From: a phage
Sequence record: OZ336095.1
Strand: one strand, 5' to 3'
DNA length: 64,000 nucleotides
Numbering within the stretch: the stretch's first letter is position 1; every line of letters begins with the position of its first letter. The translations under genes and the position numbers were made by a program. A model generated the notes under the pieces. That model was not told the DNA's origin, did not search any database, and saw nothing but the letters and a program-made list of their open reading frames with translations. Below, piece after piece: positions 59,223-59,354 of this stretch.

Positions 59223-59354
59223 CAGAAGACCGTTTACAGCAAAACTTAAACAATCTATTTCTCCGGTAAAGAAAAGGCGAAGGTTCGATTCCTTCACTCG
59301 GCAGATGTCGAGTTGGTGTAATGGTAGCACTTAAGATGATAAACAACGGTCTGG
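59223..59354 (+). repeat. Stem-bounded repeat element E4 containing tRNA-like half-molecules in permuted order
   Basis: 5' CAGAAGACCGTTTACAGCAAAA; closing ACGGTCTGG; internal T-arm+3' acceptor (59279..59303) followed by 5' acceptor+D-arm-like segment (59307..59331). Confidence 0.55.

Follow-up and report, generated by a model that had tools for sequence, protein, structure and literature searches.

A circularly permuted tRNA-like RNA module beside the gene for a predicted Ro60-fold protein in a Felix O1-like phage is probably a divergent YrlA-type Y RNA

Introduction

Particles of Ro60 and Y RNA are, to our knowledge, described from animals, bacteria and a few phages, and only as combinations of a protein recognizable as TROVE with an RNA that carries a CGAA motif. 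One type of Y RNA is YrlA, a tRNA mimic that binds bacterial Ro60 (Rsr) in vivo and carries the tRNA modifications psi55 and D. It has been defined as an RNA encoded no more than 4 kb from Ro60 on the same strand, with a terminal stem containing GNCGAAN0-1G and a central domain composed of an optional V hairpin, a T arm, an acceptor stem closed by a loop, the dinucleotide UA and a D arm; junctions of tandem tRNAs account for most false positives of this pattern, and an origin of YrlA from tandem tRNAs was proposed by Chen et al. (PMC4201824). The crystal structure of the YrlA domain (PDB 6CU1) is that of a circularly permuted tRNA, and the YrlA of M. smegmatis has a 7-bp acceptor helix, is a substrate of RNase P and receives CCA (bioRxiv 10.1101/312249). 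Here we describe E4, a 138-nt element on the plus strand at 59220–59357 of a 64,000-nt stretch of phage DNA (record OZ336095.1; the whole stretch is called the window below), in which the parts of a tRNA also follow each other in permuted order, and compare it with these and other systems.

In Cyanidioschyzon merolae and some archaea, permuted tRNA genes give rise to real tRNAs through a circular intermediate, a splicing endonuclease that acts on a bulge-helix-bulge motif, and opening of the acceptor end. Among phages, Ro60 with Y RNA-like RNAs has been noted in mycobacteriophages, CcrColossus and Bacillus phage G (Chen 2014, PMC4201824), and the Ro60 of Thermus phage phiLo has been characterized together with Yrl1/Yrl2 and host PNPase (PMC12135203). 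The protein gp130 of phage Bas63 was reported to have high structural similarity to Ro60 and to counter the ppl defence; that preprint identified no RNA and went no further than the guess that "some tRNA genes are possibly Y RNAs" (bioRxiv 10.1101/2024.10.10.617714).

Results

E4 contains one set of tRNA elements in circularly permuted order

The window derives from a Felix O1-like phage (Ounavirinae) and matched 258 phage records around the E4 region, where it was at least 99% identical to Salmonella phage FSL SP-010 and Escherichia phage ASO1A. ARAGORN revealed an array of 26 tRNA genes in the window, all on the plus strand (58411–63556), and E4 lies in a 429-nt gap between tRNA-Asp (58997–59074) and tRNA-Lys (59504–59579). 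The sequences CAGAAGACC and GGTCTGG occurred exactly four times each, in strict alternation, between 58580 and 59354, which bore out the original prediction of a repeat element at this site.

From 5' to 3', E4 consists of one strand of a terminal helix that we call the handle, UACAGCAA, a hairpin, AGGC, a T arm, a closed acceptor stem, UG, a D arm, a spacer and the second handle strand. The 5' half of the handle (59220–59242) comprises the P0 strand ttaC (59220–59223), the bulge AGA (59224–59226), the P1 strand AGACCGTT (59227–59234) and a conserved single-stranded TACAGCAA (59235–59242), and the 3' half (59345–59357) comprises the P1 strand AACGGTCT (59345–59352), an unpaired G (59353) and the P0 strand Gtaa (59354–59357); both RNAfold and RNAalifold folded these ends into a 4-bp P0, an AGA/G internal loop and an 8-bp P1. 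Enclosed by the handle are the hairpin tttct-ccggtaa-agaaa (59258–59274), which has a 5-bp stem and a 7-nt loop in the shape of an anticodon arm, was aligned as the anticodon arm by the Rfam tRNA model and corresponds to the V hairpin of YrlA; the T arm gaagg-ttcgatt-ccttc (59279–59295), with a canonical UUCGA T loop; the 7-bp acceptor-type stem actcggc-agat-gtcgagt (59296–59313); and the D arm gtgt-aatggta-gcac (59316–59330), which contains G18 and G19 and is preceded by UG (59314–59315).

The sequence between 59279 and 59330 was as originally described, namely a T arm followed by an acceptor 3' strand, an acceptor 5' strand and a D arm, and the two acceptor strands, actcggc (59296–59302) and gtcgagt (59307–59313), are complementary in seven of seven pairs, one of them G-U. 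The accompanying view that an "a" serves as discriminator base ahead of a 3-nt spacer had to be given up; instead, a single 4-nt loop, agat (59303–59306), joins the strands. E4 holds exactly one tRNA's elements (anticodon-like hairpin, T, acceptor 3', acceptor 5', D) in circular permutation, and "permuted" is apt as a description of form, whereas none of the three origins proposed along with it (a deletion remnant of tandem tRNAs, a split or permuted tRNA gene, the footprint of an insertion into a tRNA gene) fits as an account of current function.

Both strands of the window were scanned for this arrangement (5-bp T stem, TTCRANN-type loop, acceptor strands complementary in at least 6 of 7 positions, D arm with GG), and the scan returned the E4 site and one weak match, at 36859, with a non-canonical T loop. 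ARAGORN called no tRNA, tmRNA (transfer-messenger RNA) or permuted tmRNA at E4, and the Rfam tRNA model (RF00005) gave a partial match of 22 bits at 59246–59296, with a threshold of 29. With no free acceptor end and no call by a tRNA finder, E4 has the marks of neither a standard nor a permuted tRNA gene, and its anticodon-like loop in the window has C33, not U33. We also considered and rejected a group I intron or a permuted intron–exon arrangement around the two halves, no intron or ribozyme family being found with Rfam (E ≤ 1–10), and a permuted or two-piece tmRNA, of which ARAGORN found none and Rfam gave only weak tmRNA matches elsewhere in the array.

The structure of E4 is maintained by compensatory changes

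The gap between tRNA-Asp and tRNA-Lys was aligned from phages of the genera Felixounavirus, Suspvirus and Mooglevirus, and the E4 alignment comprised 14 of 16 distinct versions, recovered from 38 loci (individual loci are given L numbers below). In the acceptor helix, three of the seven pairs had both partners exchanged and a fourth had one partner exchanged, and 99% of the cells were paired; the compensatory changes were U-A/A-U/C-G, G-C/U-A and G-U/U-G/U-A. The helix is ACUCGGC/GUCGAGU in Felixounavirus; Suspvirus shares ACACGUU/GGCGUGU with some Mooglevirus phages, and Mordin and Michonne have ACCCUUC/GAAGGGU. The T arm was invariant in all 14 sequences; since its sequence was mostly fixed by the search patterns used for collection, this invariance is not independent evidence. 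The D arm was likewise invariant except at D-loop position 20. RNAalifold, supplied with no structure, predicted the outer stem together with the helices of the T arm, the acceptor stem and the D arm, and over the whole of E4 97.2% of the cells were paired, versus 42–50% in slid controls.

Other parts of the module exhibited considerable variation. The loop closing the acceptor stem ranges from 2 to 8 nt (AGAT, AC, or GCCAAACA in Mooglevirus), the V hairpin and the spacers diverge by indels of 1, 2, 4 and 9 nt, and Mooglevirus has UA as the linker between acceptor stem and D arm where Felixounavirus and Suspvirus have UG. SUSP2/KPS64 have the hairpin loop CUGGUAA, locus L028 has CUAUGAA, and many Felixounaviruses have CGGUAA. 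The substitution pattern in these alignments indicates that E4 is under structural selection at present. Comparison of related phages revealed no intact tRNA at the E4 site, and the insertions of 74–93 nt found in some relatives sit between tRNA-Lys and tRNA-Met, not at E4. Nor does the order of parts suit the footprint of an insertion into a tRNA gene, which leaves the 5' half, the element and the 3' half, not the reverse order.

The gene upstream of the array encodes a predicted Ro60-fold protein

The open reading frame directly upstream of the tRNA array (56829–58244, plus strand) encodes a 471-amino-acid protein that matched Pfam DUF2828 and DUF7788; E4 starts about 1 kb downstream, at 59220, on the same strand. 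The protein had no match to Pfam TROVE (PF05731), and phmmer against the PDB found no Ro60 and no solved structure. An AlphaFold2 model built from 40 homologs reached a predicted local distance difference test score (pLDDT) of 88.6 and a predicted template modelling score of 0.88, in place of a single-sequence model that was unusable (pLDDT 45). The model comprises a HEAT/TROVE-like ring and a vWA domain with a DxSxS metal ion-dependent adhesion site, the residues of which (D279, S281, S283, T349 and D381) are invariant in the family. The eight best Foldseek matches of the predicted structure in the PDB were all Ro60/TROVE proteins (E 1.7e-8 to 2.2e-6), the Ro60 of Thermus phage phiLo being the second best. 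On the model, the protein has a Ro60 fold, its status as an ortholog coming from predicted structure and not from sequence, and we propose it as the partner of the RNA modules described here.

The DUF2828 family had 2544 matches at E ≤ 1e-5, and its members include proteins of Felix O1-like, Yersinia and Vibrio phages and of uncultivated phage contigs of 140–270 kb. Bas63 is itself a Felixounavirus whose gp130 lies directly upstream of tRNA genes, and gp130 is the ortholog of the present protein by position and fold. The two cases agree in gene position, genus and structural assignment and differ in that the RNA candidates here are unannotated modules between the annotated tRNAs, not those tRNAs. 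A small gene upstream of the Ro60-like gene (56376–56747) encodes a DUF5681 protein; the DUF5681–DUF2828 pair is also present in loci L069 and L070, a recurrence that suggests a conserved two-gene unit.

Modules with a common handle recur beside DUF2828 genes

Four modules of the window, E1 to E4, share the handle, in which the bulged terminal helix leads into U[AU]CAGCAA, and each has the AGA/G internal loop. The inner helix is 7–8 bp long (AGACCAA/TTGGTCT, AGACCGT/ACGGTCT or AGACCGTT/AACGGTCT), and the outer helix P0 covaries among the four paralogs (tgaC/Gtca, ttgC/Gcaa, gggC/Gctc and ttaC/Gtaa). E1 (58577–58655, plus strand) occupies the spacer between tRNA-Glu and tRNA-Met and has P1 AGACCAA/TTGGTCT, tTACAGCAA and a 43-nt variable insert; E2 (58744–58809, plus strand), between tRNA-Met and tRNA-Asn, has P1 AGACCGT/ACGGTCT, aTTCAGCAA and a short insert; and E3 (59133–59212, plus strand), which is conserved across the three genera, has P1 AGACCAA/TTGGTCT, aTACAGCAA and a 44-nt A/U-rich insert. 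No further module with the handle signature was found in the 64-kb window. In phage VSe11 (L007, 500–505), tRNA-Met is joined directly to E4 and tRNA-Asn, tRNA-Tyr and tRNA-Asp are removed, a deletion that looks like recombination between two handle copies. A kink-turn and an RNase E site were considered for the handle and set aside, neither consensus fitting as judged by eye.

Eight DUF2828 neighbourhoods were examined, five of which (L069–L073) adjoin a tRNA array; these five carry handle modules, and L075 probably does. The modules are of the same design, with different helix sequences and U[AU]C[AC]GCAA after the 5' strand. Altogether, 22 modules from six phage lineages had 5–7 nt before this motif with an exact complement 40–150 nt downstream, and the helix differs in sequence between modules and lineages (AGACCAA/TTGGTCT, AGAAGCT/AGCTTCT, GGACTGT/ACAGTCC, AGAGAGA/TCTCTCT). 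In the loci examined, the handle was found only near DUF2828 genes. A search of IMG/VR for exact CAGAAGACC-N3-4-TWCAGCAA returned 23 loci outside the Felix O1-like group, about the number expected, and none had a GGTCT partner strand within approximately 170 nt, the span of module partners; these loci are thus taken as chance matches.

Counterparts of E4 itself occurred in two of these neighbourhoods. L071, a 143-kb phage whose DUF2828 protein is 51% identical, has five modules in the 690 nt that separate the DUF2828 gene from the first tRNA, three of them with a permuted tRNA-like domain, and the related 153-kb phage L073 has one such module. Their linker is UA, their Levitt pair is G15:C48 (L071 7730) or A15:U48 (L071 8042, L073 6788), and their hairpin loops are CUGUUAA (L071) and CUGCUAA (L073). 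The Rfam YrlA model matched the L071/L073 counterparts at 40.9, 25.8 and 31.4 bits (E 1.4e-7, 3e-3 and 7e-5), which is significant and below the 69-bit threshold. R1, a covariance model constructed from the Ounavirinae E4 alignment only, matched the same counterparts over their full length at 68, 59.5 and 55.9 bits; in the window it gave 169 bits for E4, then 45.9 for E2 and 41.4 for E1 through the shared handle, and at most 21.3 for the best unrelated matches (tRNAs and tandem tRNA junctions). Because both models match these counterparts, E4 is linked to YrlA through them as intermediates.

Two further modules deserve mention. The long module of the Yersinia phage locus L070 (7680–7807) is structured (z −3.3) and not tRNA-like. 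In Vibrio phage phi-pp2 (L072, 5966–6005), a minimal 40-nt handle hairpin, GACATT-tTACAGCAA...AATGTC, lies immediately upstream of the DUF2828 start codon (6001) and overlaps it; this hairpin could serve autoregulation of the DUF2828 protein's own translation.

E4 resembles YrlA in architecture and differs from it in the handle

E4 shares with YrlA (RF02553) the paired 5' and 3' ends (the protein-binding stem of YrlA), the V hairpin, a T arm with UUCGA, the loop-closed acceptor stem and the D arm, as well as a two-nucleotide linker starting with U and a D loop, AAUGGUA, identical to that of S. Typhimurium YrlA. It is likewise encoded less than 4 kb from a Ro60-fold gene on the same strand and is accompanied by shorter, handle-only RNAs (E1–E3), as YrlA is by YrlB. 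The differences are that the handle of E4 is AGAAGAC... with UACAGCAA, not GNCGAAN0-1G; that its proposed partner is a DUF2828/DUF7788 protein, not TROVE by sequence; that it lies in a phage tRNA operon, not an rsr-rtcBA operon; and that its hairpin resembles an anticodon arm. The S. Typhimurium YrlA domain had no match in complete E. coli genomes.

The phage Ro60 systems described earlier likewise pair a phage Ro60-fold protein with adjacent small structured RNAs and have been proposed to hijack host RNA-decay enzymes; their proteins are recognizable as TROVE by sequence and their RNAs were picked by the CGAA motif, whereas here the protein family and the motif are others and the context is a tRNA array. 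Like permuted tRNA genes, E4 has its 3' half ahead of its 5' half and its two acceptor strands side by side; unlike them, it comes without such machinery, motif or conserved anticodon.

A different resemblance concerns the handle and the short modules. We know of Class I RNAs only from dictyostelids and of no link between them and Ro-like proteins; a Class I gene is an RNA polymerase III gene with an upstream DUSE (Dictyostelium upstream sequence element) in a dictyostelid host. These RNAs (RF01414) have a short terminal stem, an adjacent 11-nt motif, in which U3, C6, C9, A10 and A11 are most conserved, a variable interior and a 3' CUGU (PMC7919456). The Rfam consensus of the motif is CCUUACAGCAA. 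The handle and E1–E3 follow the same plan, with a 5'/3' stem, an UUACAGCAA motif after the 5' strand, an interior that varies and CUG at the end of the 3' strand, and the same five positions are invariant in the phage motif. RF01414 matched five short phage modules at 19.6–26.8 bits, all below its threshold of 41.5: E1 (window 58585–58651, 19.7 bits), E2 (window 58752–58805, 24.0 bits), two modules of L071 (7534–7592 and 7619–7670) and one of L073 (6590–6643). Class I RNAs, however, are eukaryotic polymerase III transcripts and the host here is bacterial; only layout and motif are shared, and the resemblance may be chance or convergence.

Transcription signals, neighbouring elements and existing annotation

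Two sigma-70-type promoter-like sites with 10 of 12 matches each (58264–58292 and 58355–58384, plus strand) lie upstream of the tRNA array, and the subsequent plus-strand sites are a weak one at 59643 (9/12) and a strong one at 59753 (11/12), the latter being TTGACA-17-TATAGT (59753–59781). No plus-strand terminator-like site was found between the two array sites and 59753, so that E1–E4, as far as such signals indicate, probably share a transcript with the Pro-to-Ile tRNAs.

Directly 3' of E4, a 144-nt element (59356–59499) folds (z-score −5.85) into a long hairpin whose terminal stem measures 22 bp, and it contains a mini handle-like hairpin, CAGAC-CUUAAGCAA-GUCUG. Relatives carry either of two sequence versions of similar length, the stem exhibits compensatory changes (GTAG/CTAC vs GCAG/CTGC), and no Rfam family matched the element. 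Two hairpins come after tRNA-Asp (59078–59135), with a motif, AAGGGTTCTTACGAG..TCCTT, that is invariant across the three genera and is repeated 3.3 kb downstream (62448–62478; repeat family D14) with 84% identity. A degenerate tRNA-like stretch at 60206–60280 gave 22 bits with the tRNA-Sec model and 74% identity over 42 nt to part of tRNA-Arg(TCT) (59985–60061), and is probably a tRNA pseudogene within the array. Sub-threshold Rfam matches to permuted tmRNA (29 bits) and tmRNA (15 bits) follow tRNA-Ile, at 59679–59863 and 59795–59984.

In GenBank MZ726792.1 (27251–27379; L004 250–378, approximately window 59174–59302) and in phage REP7 (OQ174506.1), a 129-nt "tRNA-Thr-GGT" with an intron is annotated by tRNAscan-SE. 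This gene is an artefact that joins the 3' part of E3 to the hairpin, T arm and acceptor 3' strand of E4. In other records, a hypothetical protein on the minus strand is annotated across E4 and E5; frameshifting indels contradict this annotation.

Discussion

We consider it probable, at roughly 70%, that E4 is a divergent YrlA-type Y RNA, that E1–E3 are its handle-only relatives, and that all four are partners of the adjacent Ro60-fold protein. Lying about 1 kb downstream of the gene for that protein, E4 is most likely its partner Y RNA and not a broken tRNA gene. This interpretation builds on an RNA structure that covaries, on the predicted Ro60 fold and on a gene–module pairing that recurs, and for E1–E4 we infer transcription, processing, ends, protein binding and an effector role as follows. 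The modules would be transcribed with the tRNA array, and E1 and E2, each of which fills an inter-tRNA spacer, would be freed by ordinary tRNA end processing. In E4, the ends of a circularly permuted, tRNA-shaped domain would pair into the bulged helix followed by UACAGCAA, and this handle would be the docking site for the Ro60-fold protein encoded upstream. The tRNA-like domain would be the effector end, its elbow recruiting or distracting host enzymes of tRNA binding or RNA decay; in other Ro60/Y RNA particles, the recruited enzyme is PNPase. E1–E3, with the same handle and other inserts, would stand to E4 as YrlB does to YrlA.

Several observations weigh against this interpretation. RF02553 gave no match to E4 (166-nt query, 59205–59370, E ≤ 10), and neither GNCGAAN0-1G nor CGAA occurs in 59217–59245 (CAGAAGACCGUUUACAGCAA), where the 5' strand is CAGAAGACC and only GAAG is shared. 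The Levitt positions in Ounavirinae are the non-canonical A15 with C48 or A48, and the linker of Felixounavirus and Suspvirus is UG, not UA. E4 has been lost in some natural isolates and lineages: in SP116 (L005, 700–735), its T loop is fused to that of tRNA-Lys, with both RNAs lost; in ESCO49 (L008, 480–520), the segment from tRNA-Asp through the E4 D arm is replaced by 21 nt; and L069 lacks E4. The E4 RNA is, on these three cases, not essential. Two DUF2828 neighbourhoods, L074 and L076, have neither tRNAs nor modules, so that the association is frequent and not universal. Finally, gp130 alone, on a plasmid or moved into T7, suffices against ppl (bioRxiv 10.1101/2024.10.10.617714), and that activity therefore does not need E1–E4.

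The last two points, together with the position of E4 inside a tRNA operon and its tRNA elbow and anticodon-like loop, would suit a structured RNA that acts independently of the Ro60-like protein, as a decoy for tRNA-targeting defence nucleases or tRNA-modifying enzymes or as a processing or spacer element. We regard this as unlikely, given that the handle, UACAGCAA with its bulged helix, is common to modules with and without the tRNA-like domain and was confined to the vicinity of DUF2828 genes in the loci examined, the exact-motif matches in IMG/VR having no partner strand. It is highly doubtful that E4 is an inert relic, that is, a functionless pseudogene junction left when recombination in the array removed the 5' part of one tandem tRNA copy and the 3' part of the copy that follows it. 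Recombination at tRNA arms and repeats does occur in the array, as in the T-loop fusion of SP116 and the apparent deletion between handle copies of VSe11; the Mooglevirus junction ACCCTTC-G-CCA-AACA-GAAGGGT has the layout of one tRNA's 3' end with CCA, then a spacer and the 5' end of another tRNA; and E4 is dispensable in some isolates. Yet its acceptor helix has been kept by compensatory double changes across three genera, the T and D arms are essentially unchanged while the V region and the loops diverge by indels, the elements left by the break points make up one tRNA exactly, and unrelated phages have the same architecture and handle next to genes of the same protein family. A deletion remnant, as the original prediction had suggested, is hard to reconcile with this compensation and recurrence. 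As ancestry, an origin from tandem tRNAs is nevertheless likely from the Mooglevirus junction, which reads as just described, and such an origin is compatible with a present function.

Very improbable, in our judgement, is a working permuted or two-piece tRNA, in which RNase P would cut in the acceptor loop, 3' trimming and CCA would follow, and the pieces, held by the acceptor and handle helices, could be charged. Two-piece tmRNA and the processed YrlA of M. smegmatis offer parallels, the latter with an acceptor helix of 7 bp as in E4; the Mooglevirus loop encodes G-CCA, and the anticodon-loop signature CU-NNN-AA is found in SUSP2, L071 and L073. Most versions, however, have no CCA and a closed acceptor loop of only 2–4 nt (AC, AGAT), and neither the triplet nor the loop length is conserved (GGU, AUG, a 6-nt instead of a 7-nt loop in many Felixounaviruses, another hairpin in Mooglevirus); to this are added C33 in place of U33 in the window, the lack of assignable identity elements and the failure of ARAGORN to find a permuted tmRNA or tRNA at E4. 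The split or permuted decoding gene once suspected here is at odds with these same features. An 85-amino-acid open reading frame on the minus strand (59451..59194), which is gene 48 in the annotation of phage wV8 and a hypothetical protein in other records, is indeed present in the window, but a 1-nt deletion in close relatives (TTTCTCCGG vs TTTCTCGG) and indels of 2, 4 and 9 nt in other genera interrupt it, its annotated length varies between 231 and 258 nt among records, and the curated Mooglevirus records are without the gene. These frameshifting indels effectively refute a protein gene.

The likeness to Class I RNAs invites a broader and rather doubtful conjecture. The Pfam description places the DUF2828/DUF7788 family in viruses, bacteria and eukaryotes; conceivably, the handle is the recognition element of a distinct, widespread Ro60-like branch formed by this family, and Class I RNAs are the Y RNAs of its eukaryotic member, so that one class of ribonucleoprotein would span viruses and eukaryotes. 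Four proteins were pulled down with Class I RNA, one of which, DDB_G0281243, is uncharacterized (PMC7919456); under this conjecture, it would be one candidate for a eukaryotic family member.

If E4 is a Y RNA of the YrlA type, a large phage protein family that sequence comparison had left unrecognized, with a predicted Ro60 fold, would in several lineages be accompanied by its own class of small RNAs, which have a different handle and include a tRNA mimic. The unannotated modules would supply concrete candidates for the RNA partner of Bas63 gp130, a protein whose anti-defence activity has been validated by experiment, and the handle provides a simple searchable signature for further RNAs of this kind. 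Recognition of the modules would also explain the recurrent misannotation of "tRNA-Thr with intron" and "hypothetical protein" in Felix O1-like genomes. Phage tRNA arrays would thereby be tied to RNA quality-control machinery, which may bear on how these phages cope with tRNA-targeting defences.

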